Shown here piece after piece: positions 3,588 through 63,890 of a stretch of 64,000 nt of DNA. Numbering within the stretch: position 1 is the stretch's first letter; every line of letters starts with the position of its first letter. The stretch is from an uncultured Planctomycetia bacterium (GTDB lineage Bacteria; Omnitrophota; Gorgyraeia; Gorgyraeales; Gorgyraeaceae). Below the pieces are notes generated by a model. That model saw only the letters and a list, made by a program, of their open reading frames with translations, ran no database searches and was not told where the DNA came from. The position numbers and the translations under genes were made by a program. Where the stretch lies: positions 752 to 64,751 of the forward strand of contig CAYPYS010000006.1 in the NCBI GenBank assembly GCA_964415355.1, read 5' to 3'.

Positions 3588-3628
3588 CTTAAGTTTACAT
3601 TTCAACGTTGTTGAAATGTAAACTTAAG
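3588..3628. repeat. 41-bp palindromic element (19-bp stem, GTT loop), copy 1
   Basis: cttaagtttacatttcaacgttgttgaaatgtaaacttaag read directly; perfect inverted repeat. Confidence 0.95.
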
Positions 3629-14711: not shown

Positions 14712-14747
14712 GTTTACATTTCAACGTTGTTGAAATGTAAACTTAAG
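14707..14747. repeat. 41-bp palindromic element, copy 4
   Basis: perfect copy between the two GT4 paralogs; provides TAA stop of upstream gene. Confidence 0.95.
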
Positions 14748-42139: not shown

Positions 42140-43314
42140 AAATCCTTAGAATAATTACGAGGCTTAATATAGGCGGGCCGGCGAGGAATGCGGTGTTTCT
42201 TACAGAGGGAATACCTCGAACAATATTGGTTTGCGGGGAGGTCAGTGAAGATGAGGGGGATATGATGTATCTGGCAAGGGAGAAAGGGATCGAGCCGGTT
42301 ATTGTACCCGAACTTGGCAGAGAATTATCCATTGTCAATGACTGGAAAGCGTTTTGGAAAATATATAGAATTATTAGCAGGGAGAGGCCGAATGTTGTAC
42401 ATACTCATACGGCAAAGGCAGGTACGCTGGGAAGAGGAGCAGTAATTTTATATAGATTGCTTCGTCGCTTTGCTCCTCGCAATGACATGGTAGATTCCCG
42501 CTTTCGCGGGAATGACAGAACGGTTATTTTGGTACATACCTTCCATGGGCATGTGCTGCATAGTTATTTTGGAAAAATTAAAACATTTATTTTTATATGT
42601 ATAGAAAAGATCCTGGCTATATTCACTGATAGGATAATAGCAGTTAGTGAGTCTTTAAAAAAAGAGCTGGCAGGGAGATTCAGGATAGCTCCTGAAGAAA
42701 AATTTTCTGTTGTGGAGCTGGGGTTTGAATTAGAGAAATTATTGGCATTAGAACCAAGGCTTAAATCCGATCGCGTGAATATTGGTATCGTAGGGAGGTT
42801 GACAGCAGTGAAAAATCATAAGATGTTGTTTAAAGTAGCCTCAAGGCTTAAGGCTCAAGGCTTAAGGCCTGGAATTATTGTTATCGGAGACGGAGAATTA
42901 AGAGGCGAGTTAGAAGTATACGCGAGGGAGTTAGGTATAGGAGATACAGTGAAATTCCGGGGATGGGTCAAGGATGTCACAGAGATATACAGAGAGCTGG
43001 ATATCGTGGCATTGACGTCTCTGAACGAAGGCACACCTGTCTCTATAATAGAGGCCATGGCCGCAGCAAGGCCTGTTGTCGTTGCCAGGGTTGGCGGGGT
43101 TAGTGATATCGTTCAAAATAGAAAGACAGGATATCTGGTTGATGCTGGCAATGAGGAAGGTTTTACGGAAAAATTAACGGATTTAATCAAAAACAAAGAG
43201 AGGCGCGTAGAATTTGGAAGATATGGTAGAGAATCGGTAAAAGATAGATTTTCAAAAGATAGGTTGATAGAAGATATGAAAAAAGTGTATGGATTCCCGC
43301 TTTTGCGGGAATGA
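42136..43314 (+). CDS. glycosyltransferase GT4 carrying an in-frame 25-bp repeat insertion
   Basis: HTHTAKAG...VHTFHGH GT4 N-domain interrupted by DSRFRGND encoded by the GATTCCCGC repeat; C-terminus LLRE also repeat-encoded. Confidence 0.65.
   Translation: MKILRIITRLNIGGPARNAVFLTEGIPRTILVCGEVSEDEGDMMYLAREKGIEPVIVPELGRELSIVNDWKAFWKIYRIISRERPNVVHTHTAKAGTLGRGAVILYRLLRRFAPRNDMVDSRFRGNDRTVILVHTFHGHVLHSYFGKIKTFIFICIEKILAIFTDRIIAVSESLKKELAGRFRIAPEEKFSVVELGFELEKLLALEPRLKSDRVNIGIVGRLTAVKNHKMLFKVASRLKAQGLRPGIIVIGDGELRGELEVYARELGIGDTVKFRGWVKDVTEIYRELDIVALTSLNEGTPVSIIEAMAAARPVVVARVGGVSDIVQNRKTGYLVDAGNEEGFTEKLTDLIKNKERRVEFGRYGRESVKDRFSKDRLIEDMKKVYGFPLLRE
42493..42517. repeat. 25-bp palindromic element GATTCCCGCTTTCGCGGGAATGACA (REP2), copy inside the CDS
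   Basis: read directly; translates in frame as DSRFRGND. Confidence 0.9.
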
Positions 43315-43337
43315 CGATTATGAGAGTGGGAATGACA
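43292..43337. repeat. REP2 copy plus partial second copy
   Basis: gattcccgcttttgcgggaatgacg ... gggaatgaca. Confidence 0.85.
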
Positions 43338-43441
43338 GTAAAAGAAAATAGATACTCCTGTGTCTATATATAAGAGAGGGGGTGAATTAAAGAGGTTGAT
43401 TTTTAAAGTCAGATGGCAGTATAATGCACAGGAGGAGAGCT

Positions 43442-43858
43442 ATGAAAAAAGATACTGGGAAAAAGACAATGCTAAAAGAAATCAAAGGCTATATTGATTC
43501 ATCATTAAAAGAAATCAAAGGATATGTTGATTTATCATTAAAGGAAGTCAAGGGATATGTCGATTCATCATTAAAGGAAGTCAAAGAAGAATTACAAGAG
43601 ACCAAGAGATATACGGGAGTTTTGGTCGAAGGTCTGCGGTCAGAGGTCAAGCTGGTGTTTGAGCAATATGGTACTGTTATAAGAAAGCTCGAGGATCATG
43701 ACAGAAGGTTTGATGAGATTGATAGAAGGTTTGAGAATATAGATGTTAGATTTAACTGCGTTGATCTTGAGCTTAAAGGTATGAAGACGGCATTGTTTGA
43801 CAATAGCCATAGGCTTAATGACCATGAGGGCAGGATCAGGAACTTGGAAATGAATTAA
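43442..43858 (+). CDS. hypothetical coiled-coil protein with 3x tandem 10-aa repeat (SLKEIKGYVD)
   Basis: aggagga RBS then ATG; 30-nt tandem repeats at about 43490-43580; no recognisable family. Confidence 0.4.
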   Translation: MKKDTGKKTMLKEIKGYIDSSLKEIKGYVDLSLKEVKGYVDSSLKEVKEELQETKRYTGVLVEGLRSEVKLVFEQYGTVIRKLEDHDRRFDEIDRRFENIDVRFNCVDLELKGMKTALFDNSHRLNDHEGRIRNLEMN

Positions 43859-43860
43859 TG

Positions 43861-43885
43861 GATTCCCGCTTTCGCGGGAATGACA
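43861..43885. repeat. REP2 copy
   Basis: gattcccgctttcgcgggaatgaca. Confidence 0.9.
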
Positions 43886-43896
43886 AAGGGGTCATC

Positions 43897-44859
43897 GTGA
43901 GGGTATTAATTACAGGCGGGGCAGGGTTTATTGGGTCGCACCTGGCAGATGAGCTGATAAAGGCCGGGAATGAAGTTGTGGTGCTTGATAATCTCTCAAC
44001 AGGCAGCTTTGAAAACATCGAGCACCTGACCGGGAACAAAATGTTCAAGTTTGTAGAAGGCACTATTTTAAATGAGTCCCTTGTGGACAAACTGGTCGGA
44101 CAGTGCGATGCAGTATACCACCTGGCAGCGGCAGTAGGCGTGGACCTGATAGTGAAAAAGCCGCTCGAGTCGCTCGTCACGAATATAAAAGGGAGCGAGA
44201 TAGTGCTTGAGATGGTGCATCGCTATCATAAAAAAATCCTTATAACGTCTACGTCTGAGATATATGGCAAGAACGCGAACGGTCCTTTAAAAGAAGAAGA
44301 TGACAGGATCCTTGGTTCGCCTTTGAAGTCCAGGTGGGGATATTCTACTGCAAAGGCAGTGGACGAGATGCTCGCGTATATATACTGGAGAGAAAAAAAA
44401 GTGCCGAGCGTGATAGTGCGGCTTTTCAATACTGTGGGTCCAAGGCAAACCGGCGCTTACGGCATGGTAATCCCAAGATTCATAAGCCAGGCGCTCAAAG
44501 GTGAAGACATAACAGTATATGGCAGCGGAAAACAATCTAGATGTTTCTTGCATGTTAAAGATGTAGTTATTACGCTTATAAAATTGATGAATAGCCATGA
44601 TGCCGTGGGAAAGGTTTTTAATATAGGCAGCCAGGAAGAGATAACCATAGAGGGCCTTGCGAAAAAGGTAATCGACATTACAAAAAGCAGGTCAAGATTG
44701 GTTTACGTGCCTTATGACAAGGCCTATGAAGAAGGTTTTGAAGATATGCAGCGCAGGGTCCCTGATACCAGCAAGGCAAGAGATGCGGTAGGTTTTAAGC
44801 CTACAGTGGATCTCAATGGAATTATTAAGAACGTAGTCGAATATTATAAAAATAGATGA
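43897..44859 (+). CDS. NAD-dependent UDP-sugar epimerase/decarboxylase (extended SDR, UXS/GalE-like)
   Basis: VLITGGAGFIGSHL...VVLDNLSTG; YSTAK; GTG at 43897 after aaagggg RBS. The upstream ATG at 43858 would make the N-terminus repeat-encoded (MDSRFRGND). Confidence 0.7.
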   Translation: MRVLITGGAGFIGSHLADELIKAGNEVVVLDNLSTGSFENIEHLTGNKMFKFVEGTILNESLVDKLVGQCDAVYHLAAAVGVDLIVKKPLESLVTNIKGSEIVLEMVHRYHKKILITSTSEIYGKNANGPLKEEDDRILGSPLKSRWGYSTAKAVDEMLAYIYWREKKVPSVIVRLFNTVGPRQTGAYGMVIPRFISQALKGEDITVYGSGKQSRCFLHVKDVVITLIKLMNSHDAVGKVFNIGSQEEITIEGLAKKVIDITKSRSRLVYVPYDKAYEEGFEDMQRRVPDTSKARDAVGFKPTVDLNGIIKNVVEYYKNR

Positions 44860-46637
44860 TATTGAAAAGCTACCTCATACCGTTTTTTCTGTCATTCGCG
44901 ATTTCAATCCTGCTCACCCCTTTTATAAAAAAAATAGCTGTTATTAAAGGCTATGTGGCACACCCTAACGGAGACCGCTGGCACAAGAAAGAGACCGCGC
45001 TTTTTGGCGGCATAGCTATTTTTATCTCGTTTATTATTCCTTATGTTATTTTTGTAAAACCTGACATCGAGGCCATTGGTATTCTTTTATGCGGAACTAT
45101 TATTTTTGCCTTAGGTGTTTTTGACGATATAAAGCGCATAAAGCCATACACGAAGCTAATAGGGCAGATCGTCATAGCGTCTTTACTGGTCAGTTTTGGC
45201 GTGAGCATAAAAATCATTCCTTACAGGATAGTGAGCATGCCGCTTACGATACTATGGATGGTGGCGATCGTAAATTCCTTTAATCTACTCGATAATATGG
45301 ACGGGCTTTCAACCGGCATTGCGGCGATCGTGACCGGTATCCTGTTTCTGTGTGCGGTTTTTAACGGAAATATTTTATTGGCATCAACGGCATTGATACT
45401 GGCAGGGAGCCTTTTAGGTTTTCTCAGGTATAATTTTAATCCCGCGAAGATCTTTATGGGAGATTGCGGCAGCATGTTTATAGGCTTTATGCTGGGCGCG
45501 ATAACTCTGCAGGGCAGCTGGAAAGAATCAACGCATTTGGTGATGATATTAGCTATCCCTGTTTTGGTATTGGCCGTGCCTATATTTGATACGACATTTG
45601 TAACGCTTGCGAGAGGGATAAGCGCGCGCAAGATCTTTCAGGGAGGCAAGGATCATATATCTCACAGGATGGTGGTTCTTGGGCTCTCAGAGAAGAATAC
45701 GGTGCTTGTGTTGTATTTCATAGGTTTATTTTTCGGAGGCATAAGCGTGCTTTCGATGTTTGTCGCGCCGATAATAACGCTAATGCTTGTCCTGGTTGCG
45801 GCTGTGAGCCTTATATATTTCGCGACATTTTTAGGCAAGGTCAAGGTCTATAGCGACGACAAGGCAAAGACATTGAAGAAGAAAAACGGCAACGTGGTGC
45901 TGGGCGGCGCGTTGATGCATAAAAGAAGGATGTTGGAAGTAGCCATTGACTTTATATTGATATGCGTGGCGTATGTCTCAGCGTATCTTTTGAGATTCGA
46001 AGGCGTATTGTCTCATACAAATCAGGAGCTTATCGTAAGGTCTCTTCCTGTTATATTGATAATAAAATACATCGTGTTCTTTAAGTTCGGGCTTTACAGG
46101 GGTATATGGAGATACGTGAGCGTGCCTGACCTTATAGACATATTTAAGGCAGTATTGACGGCATCTTTGTTTTCGGCAGTGGCTGTGCTTTTTATGTGGA
46201 GGTTTCATGGTTTTTCAAGGGCAGTGTTTATTATTGACTGGCTTTTACTTTTTATGCTGATTTCAGGCGCAAGAATACTTGAGAGGATCTACAAGGAGAT
46301 ATTTGACCAGGTAAGATTGGGCGATAAAAAGGTCTTGATATACGGGGCTGGCGATGCAGGAGAAATCGTTTTAAGAGAGATAAGGAACAATAAGGCATTG
46401 GGTTATAAGCCGGTCGGGTTCCTGGATGACGACGAAGAGAAATTAGGGAGGCGCATACATAACGTATCGGTCTTAGGCTCAAAGACTGACATGGCGCGTT
46501 TGATAAAACAGAAAGAAGTGGGGGAGATCATAATAGCAATACCAGACCTTCCAAAAGATATCTTTGAAGACACTGTGAGTATCTGCAGAAGCTTAGACGT
46601 AAGCTGCAAAAAGATGCACGACATCCTGCCAAAATAA
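44856..46637 (+). CDS. WecA/MraY-family polyprenyl-phosphate HexNAc-1-phosphate transferase fused to PglF/WbaP-type N-terminal (4 TM + CoA_binding_3-like) module
   Basis: NSFNLLDNMDGLSTG and other PNPT motifs in residues 1-330; C-terminal 260 aa with 4 TM and IYGAGDAGEIVLREI...PVGFLDDDEEKLG...VLG. Confidence 0.7.
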   Translation: MILKSYLIPFFLSFAISILLTPFIKKIAVIKGYVAHPNGDRWHKKETALFGGIAIFISFIIPYVIFVKPDIEAIGILLCGTIIFALGVFDDIKRIKPYTKLIGQIVIASLLVSFGVSIKIIPYRIVSMPLTILWMVAIVNSFNLLDNMDGLSTGIAAIVTGILFLCAVFNGNILLASTALILAGSLLGFLRYNFNPAKIFMGDCGSMFIGFMLGAITLQGSWKESTHLVMILAIPVLVLAVPIFDTTFVTLARGISARKIFQGGKDHISHRMVVLGLSEKNTVLVLYFIGLFFGGISVLSMFVAPIITLMLVLVAAVSLIYFATFLGKVKVYSDDKAKTLKKKNGNVVLGGALMHKRRMLEVAIDFILICVAYVSAYLLRFEGVLSHTNQELIVRSLPVILIIKYIVFFKFGLYRGIWRYVSVPDLIDIFKAVLTASLFSAVAVLFMWRFHGFSRAVFIIDWLLLFMLISGARILERIYKEIFDQVRLGDKKVLIYGAGDAGEIVLREIRNNKALGYKPVGFLDDDEEKLGRRIHNVSVLGSKTDMARLIKQKEVGEIIIAIPDLPKDIFEDTVSICRSLDVSCKKMHDILPK

Positions 46638-47701
46638 TGAAAATAGGGATAGATATTCGTCCGACACTCAAGAAGACAACAGGCATAGGCAAGTATACCC
46701 TTCATCTGATCAATGCCCTTGCAGAAGTAGATCCCGAAAATAGATATTTTCTCTACAGCAGAAAAAAGATATTGGATTTTAAAAGGCGGTTGCCAAGGTT
46801 GCCCGGCGCTAATTTTTCGCATCGCGTGGATCATTTTAAAAAAGGCGTGAGTGCAGCGATGCCGGAGATAGATATTTTCCACACCTCTTCTTATGACCTG
46901 GATAGGCCGAAAAAGGCAAAATATATCGTCACTGTCCATGATGTAATTATAAAGGCATATCCGCACGGCCATAGCGAGAAGACTATAAGAGAAACAGATG
47001 AAAAATTAAAAAAGATTTTAGGCGAGGCAGATGTGTTGGTGGCGGATTCCCATAGCACCAAAGCGGATCTGATGAGGTTTTATGATGTGGCCGAGTCAAG
47101 GGTAGCGGTAATCTATCCCGGAGTTAATTTTACGGAATACGGAATACGGGATGCGGAATGCGAAGACTATATTCTCTTTGTCGGGACGCTTGAGCCGCGA
47201 AAGAATGTAGATGGAGTCATAAAGGCGTATAGCTGGCTGAGAAAAAACTCAGGCGTGAGGCATAAGCTTTATATAGCGGGCATGAAGGGATGGATGTACG
47301 AAAATATTTTTAAGGAATACGAGAAGAGCGAATTTAAAAAAGATATTATCTTTAAAGGTTATGTAAGCGAACGAGAACTGAGCGCGTTGTACCAGAATGC
47401 GTCTTTATTCGTGTATCCGTCCTTTTATGAAGGTTTCGGGTTTCCTGTGATAGAGGCGTTTAGCTATGGAGTACCTGTTGTTACTTCGAAGACTTCTTCT
47501 TGCGGAGAGGTAGCAGGCGATAACGCATTATTGGTAGACCCTTCTAATATAAAGGAGATTAGAGAAGCAATGGCAAGACTCATTGCCGATAAAAACTTAA
47601 GGGAGCAGCTGGCGAGGCGCGGCCGAGAGAGAGCGAAGCAATTCACCTGGCGCAACACCGCCTCCGCCTTAAGTATACATTTCAACAACGTTAAAGTGTA
47701 A
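46637..47701 (+). CDS. glycosyltransferase GT4
   Basis: YPSFYEGFGFPVIEAFSYGVPVV; last 10 codons lie inside a 41-bp element. Confidence 0.7.
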   Translation: MKIGIDIRPTLKKTTGIGKYTLHLINALAEVDPENRYFLYSRKKILDFKRRLPRLPGANFSHRVDHFKKGVSAAMPEIDIFHTSSYDLDRPKKAKYIVTVHDVIIKAYPHGHSEKTIRETDEKLKKILGEADVLVADSHSTKADLMRFYDVAESRVAVIYPGVNFTEYGIRDAECEDYILFVGTLEPRKNVDGVIKAYSWLRKNSGVRHKLYIAGMKGWMYENIFKEYEKSEFKKDIIFKGYVSERELSALYQNASLFVYPSFYEGFGFPVIEAFSYGVPVVTSKTSSCGEVAGDNALLVDPSNIKEIREAMARLIADKNLREQLARRGRERAKQFTWRNTASALSIHFNNVKV

Positions 47702-47707
47702 AGTTAG
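47668..47707. repeat. 41-bp palindromic element, copy 11 (subfamily 2, tatac/ctaac variant)
   Basis: cttaagtatacatttcaacaacgttaaagtgtaaagttag. Confidence 0.85.
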
Positions 47708-47709
47708 GG

Positions 47710-47734
47710 GATTCCCGCTTTCGCGGGAATGACA
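47710..47734. repeat. REP2 copy
   Basis: gattcccgctttcgcgggaatgaca. Confidence 0.9.
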
Positions 47735-47743
47735 TTTTTCGCT

Positions 47744-48253
47744 ATGATACATATTTACACGGGTAATGGAAAAGGGAAGACTAGTGCGGCGTTTGGGCTG
47801 GCAATGAGGGCAAGCGGCCAGGGGCTCAAGGTCATTATATTTCAGTTTCTAAAGCCAAAGGAGATTGTGTCAGGCGAAGAGATCTCAGCAAAAAAGCTAA
47901 AGGGTTTAAAAGTGGTAAGATTTGACCAGGCGCACCCTATATTTAAAAATAAAAGCGAAGGCGTAAATAAGACTATAGAAGAAGATTTCGAAAAAACAAA
48001 AAAGGCTGCTTTAAGCGGTAAATACGATATGGTGGTGCTTGATGAGATCATCAATGTCGTGGACCAGGGTTTTATAAAAAAAGATAGTTTTATTAGTTTG
48101 CTAGGATCCGTTCCAGGGAAGTTAGAGTTAATCCTTACGGGCAGAGGTGATACTTTAGGGATAGAGGAATATGCGGATTATGTGACCGTAATGACAGATA
48201 AAAAACATCCTTTTAAAAAGACAACAGACGCACGGAAGGGTATAGAGTATTAA
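47744..48253 (+). CDS. cobO: cob(I)yrinic acid a,c-diamide adenosyltransferase (CobA/CobO/BtuR type)
   Basis: MIHIYTGNGKGKTSAAFGLAMRASG P-loop and overall 170-aa size. Confidence 0.8.
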   Translation: MIHIYTGNGKGKTSAAFGLAMRASGQGLKVIIFQFLKPKEIVSGEEISAKKLKGLKVVRFDQAHPIFKNKSEGVNKTIEEDFEKTKKAALSGKYDMVVLDEIINVVDQGFIKKDSFISLLGSVPGKLELILTGRGDTLGIEEYADYVTVMTDKKHPFKKTTDARKGIEY

Positions 48254-48263
48254 GGTTTTTTTG

Positions 48264-48303
48264 CTTAAGTATACTTTTAACATTGTTGAAATGTATACTT
48301 AAG
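48264..48303. repeat. 41-bp palindromic element, copy 12 (compensatory tatac variant)
   Basis: cttaagtatacttttaacattgttgaaatgtatacttaag. Confidence 0.85.
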
Positions 48304-48313
48304 GATTTTTTAA

Positions 48314-48342
48314 TTGACATAGCTGTAAAATAGTTGTATAAA
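48314..48342 (+). promoter_or_regulatory. sigma70-like promoter TTGACA-17-TATAAA
   Basis: read directly; located immediately upstream of the riboswitch. Confidence 0.45.
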
Positions 48343-48359
48343 ATAAGAAACCGAATATA

Positions 48360-48560
48360 TATTATATTGTTTAAGGGAAGCTGGTGTGAGTCCAGCGCAG
48401 CCCCGCTGCTGTAATAGGGTACGAAATCTGCAAAAAGTCATTGTCCTGGAGATTTAGGACGAGAAGGCGCAGAGATTAGAGCGATCCTTAAGTCAGAAGA
48501 CCTTGCAATGTGATCTTTAAAAAGCTACGCAGGGTAGCTTTGAGGGCCAAGTAAATCAGG
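48360..48560 (+). promoter_or_regulatory. cobalamin (AdoCbl) riboswitch
   Basis: GGGAAGCTGGTGTGAGTCCAGCGCAGCCCCGCTGCTGTAATAGGG core and AGTCATTGTCCTGGAGA B12-box-like segment; upstream of btuF. Confidence 0.7.
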
Positions 48561-48565
48561 GTGCA

Positions 48566-48600
48566 ACCCCGACTAAAAAAGTCGGGGTTTTTTATTTTGT
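48566..48600 (+). terminator. riboswitch expression-platform intrinsic terminator
   Basis: ccccgactaaaaaagtcgggg hairpin followed by ttttttatttt. Confidence 0.65.
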
Positions 48601-48606
48601 GATAAT

Positions 48607-49452
48607 ATGAGAAGATTTTTTATTATTAAATTTTTAATAATGTTTTTTCTAGCTTTTAGCAGCTATTCCTTTTCTTCGGAAGGCAAAAGGTTGAGGGTAG
48701 TCTCGCTTGCGCCGTCTACTACTGAGATATTGTTCGCGCTGAGGCTGGATGAGGAGATCGTAGGTGTAAGTTCATTCTGTAATTATCCCTTAAAAGCTCA
48801 GGAAAAAGATAAGATAGGGACTTTTAGCCACCCAAACATTGAAAAGATCCTGTCTCTAAAACCAGATATTGTGTTTTGTACAGGGCTTGAGCAGGCGCCT
48901 GTGATCAGTAAGTTAAAACAATTAAATCTGGAGGTCTTTGTCAGTGATCCGCAGAACATAGAAGAACTTTTTGATTCGATCAGGGATATGGCCGTGCTTA
49001 CAAGTCGCAGCAAAGAAGGCAAAGAGTTGATTAATAAAATGAAAAAAGGTGTAGAAGAAATAAGGTCAAAAACAGAGTCTATTCCAAAAGAAGACAGGGC
49101 GAGCGTTTTTATAGAATTTTGGAATGATCCCTTGATGAGTGCGGGTGATAATTCTTTTATCGGCGAATTGATCGCATTGGCTGGAGGCATAAATATTGCC
49201 CATGACGTTAAGAGACCTTATAGTTATTTTAGCCCCGAAGAAGTAATAAAGCGCAATCCCGATCGCATCATTCTGGCTTATATGGTCAATGAAGACGCGG
49301 CAAAGACAATAAGAAAACGCCTGGGCTGGAAAGATATATCAGCGGTTAAAAATAATCGCGTATATAGCGATGTTGATCCTGATATGCTTTTGAGGCCTGG
49401 ACCGCGTTTAGTAGAAGCCCTAGGGGAGTTATATAAAAGGCTATACCCGTAG
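48607..49452 (+). CDS. btuF: periplasmic cobalamin-binding protein of ABC transporter (BtuF/TroA-like)
   Basis: signal peptide; RVVSLAPSTTEILFAL...IVGVSSFCNYP. Confidence 0.75.
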   Translation: MRRFFIIKFLIMFFLAFSSYSFSSEGKRLRVVSLAPSTTEILFALRLDEEIVGVSSFCNYPLKAQEKDKIGTFSHPNIEKILSLKPDIVFCTGLEQAPVISKLKQLNLEVFVSDPQNIEELFDSIRDMAVLTSRSKEGKELINKMKKGVEEIRSKTESIPKEDRASVFIEFWNDPLMSAGDNSFIGELIALAGGINIAHDVKRPYSYFSPEEVIKRNPDRIILAYMVNEDAAKTIRKRLGWKDISAVKNNRVYSDVDPDMLLRPGPRLVEALGELYKRLYP

Positions 49453-49476
49453 ATTCCCGCTTTCGCGGGAATGACA
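49452..49476. repeat. REP2 copy
   Basis: gattcccgctttcgcgggaatgaca. Confidence 0.9.
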
Positions 49477-49480
49477 TGTG

Positions 49481-49519
49481 TTTAAGTTTACTTTTAACAT
49501 TGTTGAAAGTAAACTTAAG
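49481..49519. repeat. 41-bp palindromic element, copy 13 (short variant)
   Basis: tttaagtttacttttaacattgttgaaagtaaacttaag. Confidence 0.85.
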
Positions 49520-49529
49520 GGAGAAAATT

Positions 49530-50480
49530 TTGAAGAAGAAAATAGTATTTTTATTTTTAATATTGTTAGGCGTTGCGTTATTAGCGGTTAGCAAGGGGTC
49601 TGTTAGCTTGACCCTTAGGGAATTATTGCTTCAGGAAAATAGAAATATATTGTATCTGCGGTTTGCGCGTATTTTAATGGCGGCCCTGGCAGGCGCAGGC
49701 CTTGCAGTCTCAGGCATAGCGCTCCAGGCTATTCTGAGGAATTCGCTTGCCGAACCTTATATCCTGGGAACGTCTAGCGGCGCTGGGTTAGGGGCTATCT
49801 TGGCTATAATTATAGGTATAGGTGCTTCATTTTTACCTGTAATAGCATTTATAGGGGCAATATTAGCCATTGTACTAGTATATAACCTGGCAAAAGAAGG
49901 GAACCGCGTCGGTGTACAATCGCTTATTTTATCAGGGGTCATCGTGTCTATAGCGTTTTCTGCCATAATAGTCTTTATGGTTTCTCTGTCGAGCAACGAG
50001 GCCCTTCACGGGATGATGTGGTGGTTATGGGGGAATTTGCAAGTGTACGATGTTAAGCACTTATTTATAGTAGGCGCTATAGTGATAGCAGGCATTATCA
50101 TGATATATATATTGGCGCAAGATTTGAATGCGATAAGCATAGGAGAAGAAGAGGCAATGCATTTAGGTATAAACGCAGAGACAGTAAAAAAGATATTGTT
50201 CGTTATTACATCCATGATCACGGCGAGTCTTGTCTCCATATGCGGTATAATCGGTTTTGTGGGGCTCATTGTCCCTCACATGATGCGGTTTATAATAGGC
50301 CCTAACCATAAGGCGCTTATTCCTGCTACTTGCGTTGCAGCCGCGATATTTATGATAACATGCGATCTGATCTCCCGAATACTTTTGTCTCCGCTGGAGA
50401 TCCCTATAGGAGTCATTACAGCTGTTATAGGCGCGCCTGTGTTTATTATTTTATTGAAGCAGAAACAGAGGATCAGGTAG
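49530..50480 (+). CDS. btuC: cobalamin/siderophore ABC transporter permease (FecCD family)
   Basis: FecCD-like polytopic sequence; TTG start after aaggga RBS; the track's longer N-terminus is repeat-encoded. Confidence 0.7.
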   Translation: MKKKIVFLFLILLGVALLAVSKGSVSLTLRELLLQENRNILYLRFARILMAALAGAGLAVSGIALQAILRNSLAEPYILGTSSGAGLGAILAIIIGIGASFLPVIAFIGAILAIVLVYNLAKEGNRVGVQSLILSGVIVSIAFSAIIVFMVSLSSNEALHGMMWWLWGNLQVYDVKHLFIVGAIVIAGIIMIYILAQDLNAISIGEEEAMHLGINAETVKKILFVITSMITASLVSICGIIGFVGLIVPHMMRFIIGPNHKALIPATCVAAAIFMITCDLISRILLSPLEIPIGVITAVIGAPVFIILLKQKQRIR

Positions 50481-51278: not shown

Positions 51279-51420
51279 GTTTACGCTTTAACATTGTTGA
51301 AGTAAAACCAGAGACGTTTACCGAGCCAATCGGGAACCTGTCTCATGTTTAAGGACAGGTTCCCGATTGGCTCGGTAAACGTCTCTAAAATACTTTAACA
51401 TTGTTGAAATGTAAACTTAG
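51274..51420. repeat. composite element: two 41-bp-element cores flanking a 33-bp-arm perfect inverted repeat (13-nt loop)
   Basis: ctaagtttacgctttaacattgttgaagtaaaac | agagacgtttaccgagccaatcgggaacctgtc-tcatgtttaag-gacaggttcccgattggctcggtaaacgtctct | aaaatactttaacattgttgaaatgtaaacttag. Confidence 0.85.
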
Positions 51421-51430
51421 ACAAGGTGAG

Positions 51431-53554: not shown

Positions 53555-53559
53555 CGGCG

Positions 53560-53598
53560 CTAACTTTACACTTCAACAACGTTAAAGTGTAAAGTTAG
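53560..53598. repeat. 41-bp palindromic element, copy 15 (subfamily 2, ctaac termini)
   Basis: ctaactttacacttcaacaacgttaaagtgtaaagttag. Confidence 0.85.
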
Positions 53599-53606
53599 AG
53601 ATCAAT

Positions 53607-56918: not shown

Positions 56919-56953
56919 CTTTACATTTCAACAACGTTAAAGTGTAAAGTTAG
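56915..56953. repeat. 41-bp palindromic element, copy 16 (subfamily 2)
   Basis: ctaactttacatttcaacaacgttaaagtgtaaagttag; supplies TAA stop of btuB. Confidence 0.85.
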
Positions 56954-57001
56954 GCGCGATTGATTTGACAAAGCAAAGGGCAATTGTTATTATATAGACA
57001 A

Positions 57002-57661
57002 ATGTATGGCGGAAAGAGTTTTAAAATCGCGGTTTTGGTTTCTGTTTTAATCCATTCGGCGCTATTTTTTTCTATTCCTAATCTATCGTTTTTCCCCAGC
57101 AGAAGGTCTTTGGAGAATCTGAGAATCACGTATTATAAGATCAAACAGCAGCCAAAGTCAAAGACTATAGCCAGGAAAAAAGCAAAGCCAGTAGCGCAAA
57201 AACTTCCAGAGATAAAAAAAGATGAGATACTCAGGCCTCCGAGACCTGCCAGGAAAGAGGCAAAAAAGGTCAAGCGCGTGACTAGGCACGTCAAGCCTGT
57301 TGAAAAAAAGGAAGAGAAGAAGTTTGAGACAGTCATCAAAGAAGAAAAAGACGACGCCAGGAAAGCGGCATACATAAGTTATTATCGGGCAGTCAGAGAG
57401 AAAATAAAGCGATACGCTGACAGGAATTATCTAAGGAATCGCAGGCTGGGCGAAGGAGAGGTATTTTTATCTTTTGTCGTGGCTTCCAGCGGAGAGCTTC
57501 TGCATGTTAAGGTGGCTAGCGAAAGGTCTGTGGATGACCCTTTGCTAAGAAATATTGGTATAAATAGCATCAGAGATGCGAGCCCATTTTCTTCCTTCCC
57601 TAAAGGTATGAGTCAATACCAGATTACCTTTAATGTCATAATCGCATTCGAGCATAGGTAG
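57002..57661 (+). CDS. tonB: energy transducer TonB family protein
   Basis: N-terminal TM anchor, Lys/Pro-rich spacer, C-terminal TonB_C-like domain. Confidence 0.6.
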   Translation: MYGGKSFKIAVLVSVLIHSALFFSIPNLSFFPSRRSLENLRITYYKIKQQPKSKTIARKKAKPVAQKLPEIKKDEILRPPRPARKEAKKVKRVTRHVKPVEKKEEKKFETVIKEEKDDARKAAYISYYRAVREKIKRYADRNYLRNRRLGEGEVFLSFVVASSGELLHVKVASERSVDDPLLRNIGINSIRDASPFSSFPKGMSQYQITFNVIIAFEHR

Positions 57662-57670
57662 GCGCGCTTG

Positions 57671-57695
57671 GATTCCCGCTTGCGCGGGAATGACA
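57671..57695. repeat. REP2 copy (one substitution)
   Basis: gattcccgcttgcgcgggaatgaca. Confidence 0.85.
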
Positions 57696-57712
57696 AAAAG
57701 CGCAAAAAAAGC

Positions 57713-57741
57713 TTGACAAAATATCAGGTTTTGGTAAGATA
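57713..57741 (+). promoter_or_regulatory. sigma70-like promoter (TTGACA -35; TAAGAT -10) for groESL
   Basis: read directly. Confidence 0.45.
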
Positions 57742-57752
57742 GTAAAACATTT

Positions 57753-57780
57753 CTGGCACTCCTCTTGTGAGAGTGCTGAT
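57753..57780 (+). promoter_or_regulatory. CIRCE-like HrcA operator
   Basis: TGGCACTC-N9-GAGTGCTGA matches TTAGCACTC-N9-GAGTGCTAA consensus at 15/18 positions. Confidence 0.7.
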
Positions 57781-57817
57781 AACAAAAACCAATAACTATA
57801 ATCAAGGAGGTGTTGGT

Positions 57818-58105
57818 ATGGGAATACAGCCTTTAGGTGACAGGGTTCTAGTAAAAAGGCTAGAGGCAGAAGAGAAGACCAAAGGCGGCATTGTTCTGCC
57901 TGATACTGCAAAGGAGAAGCCGCAAAAAGGAGAGGTAGCAGCTGTTGGCAAGGGTAAGGTGCTTGAAAGCGGCAAGGTCGAGGCATTAGAGGTAAAGAAG
58001 GGTGACAAGATTCTTTTTGGTAAATACGCTGGCAATGAGATCACTTATAAGGATGAAGAGTATCTTATTATGCGAGAGGAAGATATTTTAGCGATATTAA
58101 AATAA
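57818..58105 (+). CDS. groES: co-chaperonin GroES
   Basis: [36 protein letters not shown]; aaggagg RBS. Confidence 0.95.
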
Positions 58106-59773
<1,668 letters not shown>

Positions 59774-59807
59774 TTTAAGCAGGTAAGAGACAAGTAATAG
59801 ACCCCGT

Positions 59808-59848
59808 TGGTAATAAACATTGCCAACGGGGTTTTTTTATTTTCACTC
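59808..59848 (+). terminator. Rho-independent terminator
   Basis: ccccgttggtaataaacattgccaacgggg followed by ttttttta. Confidence 0.75.
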
Positions 59849-59850
59849 CC

Positions 59851-59889
59851 CTAACTTTACACTTTAACGTTGTTGAAATGTAAACTTAG
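59851..59889. repeat. 41-bp palindromic element, copy 17 (subfamily 2, GTT loop; flanked by cccc/gggg and T-run)
   Basis: ctaactttacactttaacgttgttgaaatgtaaacttag. Confidence 0.85.
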
Positions 59890-59899
59890 GGGTTTTGTT

Positions 59900-59928
59900 T
59901 TGACAATAGTTATTGCCTATGATATATT
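59900..59928 (+). promoter_or_regulatory. sigma70-like promoter TTGACA-17-TATATT
   Basis: read directly; upstream of the moxR operon. Confidence 0.5.
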
Positions 59929-59976
59929 TAATGTAATTCATAGCCCCTATATTGAGTATATAAATGGAGGTCGCGC

Positions 59977-60915
59977 ATGCCAAGTCTACATGAGATCCCC
60001 CAGAAATTAATAGACAATATTTCCAAGGTAATAGTAGGGAAGCTCGAGGTCATACAGCTTGTCGTGGCAGGCTTGCTTAGCAACGGTCATGTTCTTTTAG
60101 AAGATGTGCCAGGTCTGGGCAAGACAATGCTTTCGCGCTCCCTTGCAAAATCCATAGCAGCAAATTTCAAAAGATTACAATTTACTCCTGATCTTTTGCC
60201 GTCTGATGTGACAGGCGTTTCTATATATAATCAAAAGAGTCAGGAGTTTGAGTTCAGGAAAGGACCTATATTCGCGAACATAGTGCTTGCTGATGAAATA
60301 AACCGCACGACGCCCAGGACGCAGTCAGCTCTTCTGGAGGCCATGCAGGAGTTCAAAGTGACTGTTGATGGCACGTTGAGAGAATTGCCTCGGCCATTTT
60401 TTGTCATAGCCACCCAGAATCCCATAGAATTTCACGGCACTTATCCTCTCCCTGAATCTCAAGTGGATAGATTTTTGATGCAGCTCGATGTAGGATATCC
60501 GTCTGACAAGGAAGAGACAGATATCCTGGCCAGGAATCTTAAGGAGTCTCCCCTGGAGAGATTGCAGAGCGTGGTTAAGATAGAAGAGATCGTCGAATTG
60601 CAGAATGTGGTGAGCGTGGTCCATGTCGAGAATAAAATATACGATTATATAGTCAAGATAGTTTCGACAACGAGAAATCTACCAGGCGATATTAAACTGG
60701 GCGCAAGTCCTCGCGCGTCTCTCGCGCTAATGCGCTCCGCAAGAGCCCTGGCGTTTCTTGACAAGAGAGATTATGTGATACCCGATGATGTAAAGAGATT
60801 GGCTTATCCTGTCTTAAGGCACAGACTTATATTGCAGCCGAGGTCCATAGTGCGCGGCCTTAATACCAGGGATATCGTGAATCATATATTGAAAAAAGTA
60901 ACCGCTCCGGTTTGA
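59977..60915 (+). CDS. moxR: MoxR-family AAA+ ATPase
   Basis: EDVPGLGKTMLSRSLA Walker A; LADEINRTTPRTQSALLEAM. Confidence 0.9.
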   Translation: MPSLHEIPQKLIDNISKVIVGKLEVIQLVVAGLLSNGHVLLEDVPGLGKTMLSRSLAKSIAANFKRLQFTPDLLPSDVTGVSIYNQKSQEFEFRKGPIFANIVLADEINRTTPRTQSALLEAMQEFKVTVDGTLRELPRPFFVIATQNPIEFHGTYPLPESQVDRFLMQLDVGYPSDKEETDILARNLKESPLERLQSVVKIEEIVELQNVVSVVHVENKIYDYIVKIVSTTRNLPGDIKLGASPRASLALMRSARALAFLDKRDYVIPDDVKRLAYPVLRHRLILQPRSIVRGLNTRDIVNHILKKVTAPV

Positions 60916-60919
60916 GCAT

Positions 60920-62149
60920 ATGTTTACCCCAAAAAGCATATTTCTGCTCATAGTAACCATCGCCCTCCTTGCCATTTCATGGAATACAGACATAACAATG
61001 GTGTACATTTTTTTTACAGTGACGCTTGTTATGTTTGTGCTTTCTTTTGTACACCTCCAGATCACTAAGCCTGATATAGTTATTTCTCGTGAATTATATG
61101 ACACTGCATATGAAGATGATATGCTGAGTGTAAATCTAGATGTGCATAATAAACGTGGTTTCGCTGTTCATTTTTTTGAGATCTGCGATTTTTTTCCAGG
61201 TGCTCCTTTGGATAAAAAAGAGGCGTCTTTATTTGTTTTAAAAATGGAGTCGAATGAGCGCAAAAAAATAAACTATATAACGACCTGTTACAAAAGAGGG
61301 CTCTGGAGGATCGGCCCTATATCAGTTATTTCACAGGACGCGCTCGGGTTTTTTAAGACAAAAAAGCTATTAAAGATTTATTCGGATATTCTGGTTTATC
61401 CGAGATTGTTCAGGGTATTTGCTTTTCCGCCGCTCGCGAGCGGCTCTGCGTCCTGGGTAGGCGTTGAGACATCTAAGATAAGCGGCGACAGTCATGAATT
61501 TTTTGGTATAAGGGAATACCAGCGCGGAGACATGATCAGTCGTATTCATTGGCCTTCGTCGGCAAAGCACAACAAGCTTATCGTGAAACAGTTTGAACGA
61601 AATGCTGTCCAGGAAGTGACGATAGCGTTTGATTTAAAGAAAGGCCATGACATTGGAACCGGCAGAGAGACGACGTTGGAATATGCAGTCAAGATAGCAG
61701 GGTCTATTGCGTCGTATCTTTTAAACGAAGGCGCGCTCGTGCAGATGGTCGGGTATGGCAAGGAGTCGTCGATCCTGCCTTTAGGAAAAGGTGAGTCGCA
61801 CAAGTATAAGATCCTGGAATATCTGGCAAAGATTCAGGCCGACGGCGATTTTAAACTCAGCCAGGCTCTGGATGAAGCGAGTTTTGTTGTTCCTCATCGC
61901 TCAACATTGGTGACTATTATACTGGATAATGATATAGATAGCCTGACCAGCCTTATTCAGTTTAAGGTCAAAGGTATAAAACTCATAATTATCGTGCTGG
62001 CTACTTCGACATTCGGTCCTATTGAAGAAAAGGATTTTATGGATGCGGAACGGGCCAGGAAATTTGACGAGGCCTTAGCCGGACTCGAGGCGTATGTATA
62101 CAAGATCTCCAAAGGAGAGGTCCTGGAGAAAAAGTTTGAGACACTGTAA
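60920..62149 (+). CDS. DUF58 (vWA-like, MoxR-associated) protein
   Basis: N-terminal TM helices; REYQRGDMISRIHWPSSAK DUF58 signature. Confidence 0.8.
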   Translation: MFTPKSIFLLIVTIALLAISWNTDITMVYIFFTVTLVMFVLSFVHLQITKPDIVISRELYDTAYEDDMLSVNLDVHNKRGFAVHFFEICDFFPGAPLDKKEASLFVLKMESNERKKINYITTCYKRGLWRIGPISVISQDALGFFKTKKLLKIYSDILVYPRLFRVFAFPPLASGSASWVGVETSKISGDSHEFFGIREYQRGDMISRIHWPSSAKHNKLIVKQFERNAVQEVTIAFDLKKGHDIGTGRETTLEYAVKIAGSIASYLLNEGALVQMVGYGKESSILPLGKGESHKYKILEYLAKIQADGDFKLSQALDEASFVVPHRSTLVTIILDNDIDSLTSLIQFKVKGIKLIIIVLATSTFGPIEEKDFMDAERARKFDEALAGLEAYVYKISKGEVLEKKFETL

Positions 62150-62152
62150 GTT

Positions 62153-62190
62153 CTAACTTTACATTTCAACAACGTTAAAGTGTAAAGTTA
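62153..62190. repeat. 41-bp palindromic element, copy 18 (subfamily 2)
   Basis: ctaactttacatttcaacaacgttaaagtgtaaagtta. Confidence 0.85.
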
Positions 62191-62202
62191 CGGATGTGAG
62201 AC

Positions 62203-63852
62203 ATGGATAGAGACGCATTATATTTTCATATTTCAAATCTTATCCTGGTTCTTCTAGCGCTGGTAAGCATAGGACCTGTTTTAAATCCTTTTATCGCAAT
62301 GATTCTGATTCCCGGCACTATCGTTGGTTTTATTGTAAGCTGGCAGATAAAGGAACGCAGGCCGCAGCAGATAGATACATTTATCGGGATGCTTTCTCTC
62401 GCCGCCATTATCATTATCTTTGGACGGTTATACGATACAGCTATCGTAGTCGATAATCTCCTGAAGATTTTTTCTTTGGCCTTAGCATGGCTTACATTTT
62501 TTCAAAGCTTCGGCCTTAAAACCGGCAAAAGCTATGCGATGATGCAATTTATATCAGTAAGTTTATTACTGTCGTCTGTTGGCCTGGCCCTCGAGCAAGA
62601 GGCGTTTTACATGGTGCTCCTTACCGTTTTTCTCTTTGTGTTTATTTTTACTATGCGGTTGAATTTGGTGTGCGATAAAAAACGCAAGGGTTCTCATATC
62701 ATAGGTTATCAGCGCGAGATAATGAGCCTGCCTCAGCAGATAAAAACAGTTTCTCTTATGTTTTCGTTTATCTTGATAGTCGCTTCTTTTGTGTATCCGC
62801 TTGTCCCTAGATTTGAAAATATTTCTTTCAGACAGATACCGTCTTCTCTCGTAGGATTTCCTGAGCAGGTGCCTTTGCTCAAGATGTTTGTTAGTGCGCC
62901 GAAAACCGTAGAGGATGACAAAAAGGCCAAAGAAGCGCAATTTGTTGATGACCAGAGCAGGATAAGAGAAATAAATGACAAGAAAACAAGGGATGGCGAT
63001 AACCAAAAAGATTCCGAAGGCAAAGTCGATGGTTCTATTATTACTAGATTCCCGTCAGAGGGCTTTGATGAGAGCATAGATATATTTCAGATAGAATCCC
63101 TTACTATAGATTCAGATAAAGAAGAGGTGGCAGCCGGAGGGCAATGCAATCTCAGCGCAGAAATAAAACTGATAGACGGCTCAGTTATTCCAGTGACCGA
63201 GATCGTTGACTGGAAGGTGACCGGTTCTAAAAAGGTTTCTGTGGATAGAGGTATTCTGGTCCCAAAGGAAAAAGGCCGCATAAGCATTTCAGCCTCATAT
63301 CTGGGTAGTTTTAGCAATGATGTAGACATAAAAGTAACAGAGGCCCTGGGGGCGCAGAGAAAAATAGATTGGATGCGTAGAACGTGGACGATTTTAGCAT
63401 GGTTGATTATATTTGCCTTGCTTGGCTTGTTTTTCTGGGCTTTTATAAGGAGCAGCAGATTAAGAGAGCTGGCGATCAAGGATCCGCGGGAGTTCATAAA
63501 AGAGATATATGTCACGCTGTGCAGGGGATTTAAGATCTATGGCATCCCCAGGCTGGATTGCTTTGCCCATAGAGAATTTTTTGAATTTTCTAAAAAACTT
63601 GTATATTCAAAGCCAGAGCCGTTGTGTATTATGACTGAGAATGTGCTGGAGGCGCGTTTTTCCGCTCATGATATTTCCGCAGAGCATTCGAAGAAAATAT
63701 TGGGATTATTCCATGATGTCAGGAGGATAGTTCTTGGCAGGCCCGGATTTAAAGAGAGCGGGAAGAAATTCTTATTCACCTTGCTCATGTTGGATGTCCT
63801 GATGCTGGGGCAATTTATTGCATGTCATTCCCGTGCAAACGGGAATCCATAA
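62203..63852 (+). CDS. membrane protein with bacterial Ig-like (Big_2) domain, MoxR-operon partner
   Basis: N-terminal TM helices; Big_2-like segment (IDGSVIPVTEIVDWKVTGSKKVSVD); last 10 codons lie in an inverted REP2 copy. Confidence 0.35.
   Translation: MDRDALYFHISNLILVLLALVSIGPVLNPFIAMILIPGTIVGFIVSWQIKERRPQQIDTFIGMLSLAAIIIIFGRLYDTAIVVDNLLKIFSLALAWLTFFQSFGLKTGKSYAMMQFISVSLLLSSVGLALEQEAFYMVLLTVFLFVFIFTMRLNLVCDKKRKGSHIIGYQREIMSLPQQIKTVSLMFSFILIVASFVYPLVPRFENISFRQIPSSLVGFPEQVPLLKMFVSAPKTVEDDKKAKEAQFVDDQSRIREINDKKTRDGDNQKDSEGKVDGSIITRFPSEGFDESIDIFQIESLTIDSDKEEVAAGGQCNLSAEIKLIDGSVIPVTEIVDWKVTGSKKVSVDRGILVPKEKGRISISASYLGSFSNDVDIKVTEALGAQRKIDWMRRTWTILAWLIIFALLGLFFWAFIRSSRLRELAIKDPREFIKEIYVTLCRGFKIYGIPRLDCFAHREFFEFSKKLVYSKPEPLCIMTENVLEARFSAHDISAEHSKKILGLFHDVRRIVLGRPGFKESGKKFLFTLLMLDVLMLGQFIACHSRANGNP
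63823..63847. repeat. REP2 copy, inverted orientation, variant
   Basis: tgtcattcccgtgcaaacgggaatc. Confidence 0.8.
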
Positions 63853-63865
63853 ATACCGTTATATA

Positions 63866-63890
63866 GATTCCCGCTTTCGCGGGAATGACA
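63866..63890. repeat. REP2 copy
   Basis: gattcccgctttcgcgggaatgaca. Confidence 0.9.

Follow-up and report, generated by a model that had tools for sequence, protein, structure and literature searches.

What is the second dispersed palindromic repeat of this Omnitrophota bacterium, found between 42.5 and 63.9 kb of a 64-kb window (the whole stretch of DNA that was analysed), and which enzyme, if any, is associated with it? The initial annotation described it as a REP-like family, possibly associated with RAYT genes of the IS200/IS605 type. It is indeed a short REP-type hairpin repeat, oriented by its tail, and the 41-nt palindrome belongs to another family; the family is not new, having already been named and characterised. 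The repeat is an ordinary new instance of a described hairpin, in an uncultured Omnitrophota genome. With a probability of about 0.8, it belongs to the family known as CGTC-1 REP, Neisseria dRS3/NTS or Ssn-related motif (SRM), which is linked to the GIY-YIG nuclease Ssn.

By a pattern search allowing up to 3 mismatches, eight copies of GATTCCCGCTTTCGCGGGAATGACA were recovered, exactly those annotated before: seven on the + strand, at 42493, 43292, 43861, 47710, 49452, 57671 and 63866, and one on the - strand, at 63823. The same search gave no match in 100 dinucleotide-preserving shuffles of the window. Five of the eight copies are exact, being identical over 25 nt, and the set is arranged as six singletons and one dimer. 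The partial duplicate reported near 43292 was found as well: it is GGGAATGACA, at 43328..43337 (- strand), and holds the 3' arm and the tag only.

Each copy is made of an 8-bp stem, a 4-nt loop and conserved unpaired flanks. The - strand form is TGTCATTCCCGCGAAAGCGGGAATC, and the opposite-strand reading can be written as (T/C)GTC-ATTCCCGC-GAAA-GCGGGAAT-C. The hairpin core ATTCCCGC-N4-GCGGGAAT is found in all eight copies, the stem at 63823 carrying a compensatory pair change (ATTCCCGT...ACGGGAAT, C-G to T-A). A G precedes ATT throughout; the tail GACA, annotated as conserved, is present in seven copies and reads GACG in 43292. The G+C content of the repeat is 56%, compared to 40-46% in the flanking DNA, as had been claimed. 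The ability to fold was evaluated on single-stranded DNA, where the repeat reaches -9 kcal/mol (z = -4.4 to -4.9, equalled by 0 of 200 shuffles) and the inverted pair 63823/63866 reaches -21 kcal/mol (z = -7.3), in agreement with the short hairpin originally proposed.

Family identity was observed directly, by comparison of the copies with published definitions. Chenal et al. (2025, Nat Commun; PMC11893778) described the NTS, or "Ssn-related motif" (SRM), which is cut by SsnA, a GIY-YIG single-strand nuclease; SsnA binding depends critically on the C that directly follows the stem, and cutting on the GTC that precedes it (PMC11893778). Their SRM search sequence, HGTCWYN(0-2)YYVSBRHN(0-5)WNVSBRGN(0-2)RNCYNB (PMC11893778), matches seven of the eight copies and nothing else in the 64 kb, on both strands. 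The remaining one, an SRM-like copy with loop GCAA at 57668..57695 (- strand), located between ORF 56984-57661 and the groES promoter, misses the pattern at the last tail base only, and both the GTC and the C critical for SsnA are kept in all eight. No copy comes within 1 mismatch of the Neisseria NTS consensus CGTCATTCCCGCGMAVGCGGGAATCYRG, the strict criterion: the copies show 2-4 mismatches, which always include the outermost position 1 or 28. In six copies the mismatches are limited to positions 1 (T for C), 27 or 28 (tail); additional ones are located in the loop of 43292 (13) and at the compensated stem pair of 63823 (12, 17). The window copies are therefore SRMs only in the wider sense and fall outside the strict Neisseria-type NTSs.

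CGTC-1 tagged REPs, which include Neisseria dRS3 and Rickettsia RPE-6, were described by Di Nocera, De Gregorio & Rocco (2013; PMC3733652). All eight copies fit the CGTC-1 definition (8-bp stem with A-T at the first two positions, 4-nt loop, tag CGTC, TGTC or CCTC), as well as the dRS3 pattern ATTCCC-N8-GGGAAT, and a paper on N. gonorrhoeae prints the exact hairpin as well. Conservation of the 3' tail (CYRG/CCA) is loose in the window, the tails being CTA, CCA, CCA, CCC, CTA, CCA, CCA and CTA, with the consensus CCA in four of eight. An Rfam search assigned no family to the repeat, the sole match in the window being a cobalamin riboswitch.

The spread across phyla was likewise observed directly. 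Confinement of the copies to this window, named by the initial annotation as the outcome that would speak against its proposal, is excluded because the exact 25-mer is present in at least 119 stretches of other genomes, from most bacterial phyla. Hosts include CPR bacteria, Omnitrophota, Bacteroidota, Proteobacteria, Chloroflexota, Planctomycetota and a Rickettsia endosymbiont, among others, and inverted pairs are frequent. In four of the 119 loci, inverted copies flank a gene of about 95 aa with a GIY-YIG domain (Pfam PF01541); an Omnitrophota MAG (L020) has an SRM-flanked GIY-YIG gene. When the ORFs of the 119 loci were clustered, and six of the largest clusters inspected, GIY-YIG was the only family adjoining the repeat, the other large clusters inspected being response regulators/kinases, dehydrogenases and ABC ATPases.

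The link was tested independently on 80 loci with Ssn-like GIY-YIG genes, chosen by protein alone. An SRM lies within 200 nt upstream of the gene in 34 of 77 cases, downstream in 43 of 78, and on both sides in 23 of 75; the density is 2.99 SRMs per kb near the gene and falls to 0.10 per kb beyond 500 nt from it, a difference of about 30-fold. The SRMs at these genes form inverted pairs with the tags outward (33:6 upstream, 46:7 downstream); beside these genes, ATTCCCGC is again the most frequent stem. The known partner of the repeat is the GIY-YIG nuclease Ssn, of the cd10448 type, not a RAYT, and the link is independently replicated; it is no new finding, having already been published in 2025 (PMC11893778). 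Ssn is a small, single-domain nuclease of about 95 aa, specific for single-stranded DNA, which binds the hairpin and cuts just 5' of it, leaving double-stranded DNA, RNA and the complementary strand intact (PMC11893778). Spread of the repeats is proposed to start from an SRM-ssn-SRM unit that resembles an insertion sequence and is formed by inverted copies with tags outward, and the sole demonstrated biological role is the limitation of natural transformation, in Neisseria (PMC11893778).

A six-frame HMM search of the window recovered no GIY-YIG gene, and none was found in the 10 kb to the right, where further repeat copies are also missing. The window copies are thus orphan and non-autonomous, as no nuclease gene adjoins them. 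All sampled strains carry the same copies (contigs 99.9-100% identical), so that no recent movement is seen. Under the SRM/Ssn assignment, the genome would encode a matching Ssn, which would move the window copies. The inverted pair formed by the opposite-oriented copy at 63823..63850 (+ strand), encoding the C-terminal residues of ORF 62203-63852, and its partner at 63863..63890 (- strand) has tags outward and tails inward, the polarity of the pairs flanking ssn genes elsewhere, and may be viewed as an SRM-ssn-SRM unit without its gene.

The best surviving alternative, still an unlikely one, is that the copies are relics, descended from an SRM-ssn-SRM element whose matching nuclease has since been lost, and now represent inactive, neutral or mildly structural DNA. 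Such an origin would agree with the absence of an ssn gene from about 74 kb, with copies fixed and identical among all sampled strains, with the partial copy at 43328, and with the finding that an Ssn homologue is missing from 19% of SRM-rich genomes (PMC11893778). Yet the identity of five of the eight copies over 25 nt, together with the preservation of the critical bases in all, argues for recent spread or constraint; the sole diverged stem is altered by a compensatory pair; and the DNA examined is about 74 kb of the genome.

In a compact, one-directional Omnitrophota array, copies would survive only where they are harmless, that is in the few bases between genes, in the last codons and stop of a gene, or in frame in a tolerant protein loop. 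The copy at 43858..43885 (- strand) starts at the last base of the TAA (43856-43858) of ORF 43424-43858 and lies upstream of an epimerase/dehydratase gene, and the one at 49449..49476 (- strand) overlaps the TAG stop of a periplasmic binding-protein gene (48607-49452) and is followed by a degenerate 41-nt palindrome. The copy at 47707..47734 (- strand) abuts the 41-nt palindrome 47668-47708 and includes the mechanical ATG (47729) of a cobO-like gene. The frequent adjacency to the 41-nt element claimed for the repeat holds for these two sites (47668/47710 and 49452/49481) and shows no enrichment over chance: 15 of 57 gene junctions contain the palindrome and 6 the repeat, with a strict shared count of 1 (P = 0.86). 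Adjacency is a chance effect, because intergenic space is scarce. When metagenomes were scanned for the 41-nt palindrome, 0 matches were obtained.

Two copies are hosted by a GT4 glycosyltransferase gene (42136..43314, + strand). The SRM CGTCATTCCCGCAAAAGCGGGAATCCAT, at 43289..43316 (- strand), provides its final 7 codons (GFPLLRE) as well as its TGA stop. The SRM TGTCATTCCCGCGAAAGCGGGAATCTAC, at 42490..42517 (- strand), fits the published pattern and lies in frame inside the gene, where it encodes ..MVDSRFRGND..; directly upstream of it, and in the same frame, a hairpin of a second type, TGTCATTGCGAGGAGCAAAGCGACGAAGCAATC (42455..42487, - strand), encodes LLRRFAPRND. This second hairpin does not match the SRM pattern, and its sequence type recurs in loci of other phyla (L002 and L131). 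Jointly, the hairpins at 42455 and 42490 form a 63-nt (21-codon) in-frame insert, and homologues free of the insert exist.

The insert falls between HTHTAKAGxxGR and VHTFHGH, in a surface loop of a conserved GT4 glycosyltransferase, where orthologous GT4 genes show a hairpin insert that is present, absent or of another type. Among 118 homologues compared, about a quarter have a loop of 10-11 residues and many others carry 4-31 extra residues; about 15 of the extended loops read as translated SRMs (MDSRFRGND) or ATTGC-type hairpins (LLRRFAPRND), and several further inserts resemble other repeats, as in CHCEAAGRSNL. The window gene contains two hairpin inserts in tandem. Tentatively, these loops suggest that in Omnitrophota SRMs and other hairpin repeats may be, or may recently have been, mobile enough to colonise coding sequence repeatedly, a possibility that is less likely than not.

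A role at the RNA level, the hairpin being an intercistronic mRNA stabiliser, a processing site or a terminator within the co-directional array, appears improbable. It is suggested by the orientation of seven of the eight copies with the genes, right after stop codons, and by the proposal that REPs of the same superfamily act as RNA elements (PMC3733652), against which stand the lack of a U-tract, the copy found inside coding sequence and the absence of any Rfam family match; in addition, SsnA does not bind RNA (PMC11893778). In the terminator test only one of eight copies (47707..47734) was flagged as terminator-like and this reading was rejected, the clear terminators of the region being other hairpins (59799 and 48565). 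In the window, the strand cleavable by Ssn is the template, C-rich strand in seven of eight copies (two-sided binomial P ~0.07), whereas among singletons in the 119 loci of other genomes no bias is seen with respect to neighbouring co-directional genes (28:21, P = 0.39), which also speaks against an RNA role, or with respect to the GC skew nearby (50:50; 14:6 at |skew| > 0.1, P = 0.12). An orientation bias of the copies is thus unproven. An RNA role would also be compatible with the SRM/Ssn explanation.

Mobilisation as REP/REPIN elements, in which an IS200/IS605-like tyrosine transposase (RAYT) recognises the hairpin and a tetranucleotide tag and spreads the copies, is very improbable, and the association suggested by the initial annotation could not be maintained. 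The resemblance to REPs consists of a hairpin with an unpaired tag and of inverted doublets, and GTAG precedes the stem on the + strand at 42493 and 49452; however, the corresponding four bases are otherwise ATGG, GGGG, TTGG or ATAG, and the conserved tag is TGTC/CGTC. CGTC REPs occur without RAYT association in over 80 species (PMC3733652), no recurrent transposase was found in the inspected ORF clusters of the 119 loci (six of the largest), and no transposase family is among the Pfam matches listed for the window ORFs.

It is equally improbable that the copies are recombination or integration targets, the part that dRS3 plays in Neisseria for filamentous prophages and IS110-type recombinases. 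A phage recombinase is described as targeting dRS3 there (PMC11893778), and the window motif fits dRS3, but no prophage, recombinase or insertion-sequence gene lies beside any of the eight copies and no recurrent recombinase was found in the inspected clusters of the 119 loci.

Compared to the NTS/SRM and SsnA system, to which the window repeat is here assigned, the copies share the palindrome ATTCCCGC...GCGGGAAT, the GTC tag, the post-stem C, the SRM pattern and the outward tags of inverted pairs. They differ in starting with T instead of C in seven of eight cases, in a 3' tail other than CYRG, in the lack of a nearby ssn gene, and in a host phylum, Omnitrophota, unmentioned in the text of the paper (PMC11893778). 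Overlap with coding sequence involves three or four of the eight window copies, whereas in N. meningitidis only 2% of NTSs are intragenic (PMC11893778). With CGTC-1 REPs they have in common the 8-bp stem starting from AT, the 4-nt loop, a CGTC tag that is often TGTC, a short unpaired tail, inverted dimers and occasional intragenic units; they differ in that the tail is CCA in about half of them, singletons predominate and the phylum lies outside the 2013 survey (PMC3733652). GTAG REPs/REPINs with RAYT, and IS200/IS605 elements, are alike in outline: a small enzyme devoted to the repeat recognises the tagged hairpin in single-stranded DNA, inverted copies stand on both sides of the gene for this enzyme, and doublets and singletons that lack the gene are scattered between other genes. 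The tag is TGTC in the present case, the enzyme has a GIY-YIG nuclease fold, not that of an HUH/Y1 transposase, and transposition by Ssn is putative.

As a discovery the repeat carries little weight, since the family, its occurrence across phyla and the enzyme associated with it were published in 2013 and 2025. For annotation, the eight sites can be labelled as SRM/CGTC-1 REP, not as unexplained repeats or terminators; mechanical ORF starts and ends falling inside copies (47729, 49476, 43858) call for caution, and the repeat itself encodes short "hypothetical" peptides such as DSRFRGND or FPLLRE. If the GT4 loop is a true insertion hot spot, and not merely a tolerant site, it would provide natural filled and empty sites for the insertion of Ssn-associated repeats, and hairpin repeats would be a source of protein-loop variation. 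Compact Omnitrophota genomes with such in-frame filled and empty sites could help to establish whether Ssn moves the repeats, and what role the repeats play in bacteria without known natural competence.

The 25-mer GATTCCCGCTTTCGCGGGAATGACA matches the window at precisely eight sites, seven on the forward strand (starting at 42493, 43292, 43861, 47710, 49452, 57671 and 63866) and one, 63823, on the reverse strand; the eight copies described in the initial annotation, the inverted one included, were all re-found, and the observation is real and accurate. Five copies are exact, all eight contain the core ATTCCCGC-N4-GCGGGAAT, and position 43328 has a half copy, GGGAATGACA. The stem of the 63823 copy reads ATTCCCGT...ACGGGAAT, a compensatory change by which pairing is kept. 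No occurrence of the 25-mer was obtained in 100 dinucleotide-preserving shuffles. Folding of the unit as single-stranded DNA gives an 8-bp stem closed by a 4-nt loop, at -9 kcal/mol and with a z of about -4.4 to -4.9; the inverted pair 63823/63866 folds at -21 kcal/mol (z = -7.3) into one long hairpin. A general scan of the window for AT-stem hairpins followed by GAC revealed no convincing ones beyond the known copies.

The opposite strand of the unit is (T/C)GTC-ATTCCCGC-GAAA-GCGGGAAT-C. The unit belongs to the already known CGTC-1 family of tagged REPs, whose members have an 8-bp stem beginning with AT, a loop of 4 nt, a short tail and a CGTC tag that is frequently replaced by TGTC (PMC3733652); the proposed REP-like nature was right in kind, and the interest of the element, as a member of a known family, is low. 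CGTC-1 has been described in five phyla and includes Neisseria dRS3 and Rickettsia RPE-6; in contrast to the GTAG REPs, those with a CGTC tag were emphasized to have no associated RAYT or other transposase (PMC3733652).

The connection of the repeat with GIY-YIG proteins is the subject of a 2025 paper (PMC11893778). It describes the 28-nt Neisseria Transformation Sequence (NTS), CGTCATTCCCGCGMAVGCGGGAATCYRG, and its generalized form, the Ssn-related motif (SRM). SRMs flank the genes that encode the single-domain GIY-YIG protein SsnA (cd10448); according to the authors, the NTS-ssnA-NTS arrangement resembles an insertion sequence. SsnA binds this hairpin; its cleavage is restricted to single-stranded DNA and to the motif strand, where it falls just 5' of the motif, and neither double-stranded DNA nor RNA is a substrate. 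Binding depends critically on the C that follows the palindrome and cleavage on the three bases that precede it, and in N. meningitidis the Ssn system reduces transformation by motif-bearing DNA (PMC11893778). The published SRM pattern is matched by seven of the eight window copies and nowhere else in the window, and GTC before the stem and C after it are kept in all eight. These data show the window copies to be SRM-family hairpins with intact recognition features. All fall outside the strict NTS definition of Neisseria, which tolerates no more than one mismatch: each copy has two to four, which in six copies fall at the outer positions 1, 27 or 28 and in 43292 and 63823 affect the loop or stem as well.

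The repeat is clearly not confined to the window, as the exact 25-mer was found in at least 119 stretches of a species-representative genome collection. Among the stretches listed, hosts include CPR/Patescibacteria, Omnitrophota, Bacteroidota, Ignavibacteria, all Proteobacteria classes, Chloroflexota, Planctomycetota, Acidobacteriota, a Rickettsia endosymbiont and others, with a G+C content of 30 to 73%. The flanks lengthen the consensus to CTG-GAT...ATGACA; inverted partners are frequent, 15-90 nt off, and stems often co-vary (e.g. ATCCCCGC, ATGCCGGA). Some loci carry tandem arrays or dense mosaics, recalling Neisseria intergenic mosaic elements: five copies with a 124-nt period in L086 (70% G+C, 2522-3042), a 36-nt period in L044 (5789-5921), L033 (117-434), and strings of half copies around a GIY-YIG gene in L045 (2400-3100).

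Clustering of the ORFs from the 119 repeat-bearing loci identified, in four loci from different phyla, a stand-alone GIY-YIG protein of about 95 aa, its gene flanked each time by inverted repeat copies with tags outward; among the largest clusters, which were inspected, there was no recurrent transposase. As an independent check, 80 loci were fetched by GIY-YIG protein similarity alone, the repeat-encoded N-terminus of the query having been removed beforehand. An SRM lay within 200 nt of the gene upstream in 34 of 77 loci, downstream in 43 of 78 and on both sides in 23 of 75, and density was 2.99 per kb beside the gene versus 0.10 per kb beyond 500 nt. Upstream SRMs were on the gene strand (33:6), downstream ones on the opposite strand (46:7), and half of the flanking SRMs had the stem found in the window, ATTCCCGC.

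Neither the window nor the next 10 kb on its right contains a GIY-YIG gene; an Omnitrophota MAG, L020, encodes one of Ssn type. The genome of the window would, like L020, encode a matching Ssn, located elsewhere; the eight copies would be non-autonomous derivatives, and the tags-outward pair 63823/63866 may represent a gene-less form of SRM-ssn-SRM. That the copies are instead relics without a partner is a less likely alternative. A purely RNA role, as terminator or stabilizer, is disfavoured: a U-tract is absent, only one copy in eight was flagged as terminator-like, one is intragenic, and in other genomes orientation relative to genes is unbiased (28:21). The window's own 7:1 orientation, in which the cleavable strand is the C-rich template of transcription, was not reproduced relative to GC skew in other genomes either. 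A RAYT-driven REP, with the IS200/IS605-type partner suggested initially, is disfavoured by the tag, the literature and the gene associations in the 119 loci.

Nearly all long ORFs of the window (57 of 58) are on the forward strand, the exception being one of 85 aa, and GC skew is strong and positive throughout (0.10-0.37). Near 42 kb the G+C content rises stepwise from 34-41% to 40-47%, and all eight SRMs lie on the higher side (42-64 kb). The part at 1-42 kb, where G+C is 36-40%, encodes glycosyltransferases, methyltransferases, radical-SAM/B12 enzymes and epimerases. In the part at 42-64 kb, with 40-46% G+C, further glycan genes are joined by an operon for cobalamin salvage and transport, a gene for a TonB-dependent receptor, groES-groEL and a MoxR/DUF58 cluster. 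A cobalamin riboswitch (48350-48524; Rfam RF00174, 88.7 bits) precedes btuF-like, FecCD and ABC transporter genes and the cobU/cobT/cobS salvage genes. Directly downstream of SRM 57671, the region upstream of groES-groEL (57713-57790) contains a sigma-70-like promoter, TTGACA-16-TAAGAT, and then a CIRCE-like inverted repeat, GGCACTC-N9-GAGTG. A JGI metagenome contig, Ga0118720_1000127, is identical to the window, and the same copies occur in other assemblies 99.9% identical to it.

The other repeat family of the initial annotation, a 41-nt perfect palindrome, CTTAAGTTTACATTTCAAC-GTT-GTTGAAATGTAAACTTAAG, is found on both sides of the step (3585-62203; e.g. 3588-3628, 14707-14747, 53559-53599), with 15 clear and about four degenerate copies at gene junctions throughout the window; its loop occurs in both GTT and AAC orientations, and a stem variant, CTAACTTTACA..., predominates past 53 kb. 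It had no match in the JGI metagenome collection (exact or IUPAC scan) or in the 119 cross-phylum loci, and so looks lineage-specific. The frequent adjacency of the two repeats proposed earlier corresponds to chance expectation.

The SRM copies are placed where spare DNA is almost absent. The 43861 copy starts 3 nt past a stop codon, 49452 overlaps a TAG stop, 43292 provides the final seven codons and TGA of a glycosyltransferase (GT4) gene (42136-43314, forward strand), 63823 encodes C-terminal residues of ORF 62203-63852, and the mechanically called start codons 47729 and 49476 lie inside copies. The unit is open in five of its six reading frames, and this explains how a copy can turn into codons; in such a compact, co-directional gene array, selection would have left harmless insertions only. 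ORF 43424-43858 (144 aa, no Pfam match), bracketed by the direct-orientation SRMs 43292 and 43861 and the half copy 43328, contains three 33-nt tandem repeats (43473-43586) encoding SLKEIKGYVDS.

Just upstream of the 42493 copy lies a second hairpin type, TGTCATTGCGAGGAGCAAAGCGACGAAGCAATC (42455-42487, reverse strand). This ATTGC-type hairpin, TGTCATTGCGAGGAGC(A/G)AAGCGACGAAGCAATC, is widespread, with near-identical copies in unrelated phyla (e.g. L002:2927, L131:2084); its TGTCAT...AATC frame is also that of the SRM, yet it does not match the published SRM pattern, and it is not enriched beside the sampled Ssn-like genes (4 matches in 302 kb). Together with the 42493 copy, it forms a 63-nt, 21-codon insert in the GT4 gene, in frame, reading LLRRFAPRNDMVDSRFRGND and placed between the invariant motifs HTHTAKAGTLGR and VHTFHGH. 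The nearest homologues of this gene are annotated as Candidatus Omnitrophota, and in Omnitrophota homologues (P0002-P0120) the loop that separates HTHTAKAGxxGR from VHTFHGH varies in length between 10 and 42 residues. This loop has 10-11 residues (LAGILYGKAIL) in about a quarter of 118 homologues and 4-31 extra ones in many others; about 15 of the longer loops read as translated SRM (MDSRFRGND) or ATTGC-type hairpins (LLRRFAPRND, LLRFARND), and further insert peptides include CHCEAAGRSNL and LTLTLSPKGRG. Similar inserts occur at two further loops and at the C-terminus. The pattern points to either repeated insertion at the same sites or tolerance of the inserts, and the GT4 loops represent natural filled and empty sites.
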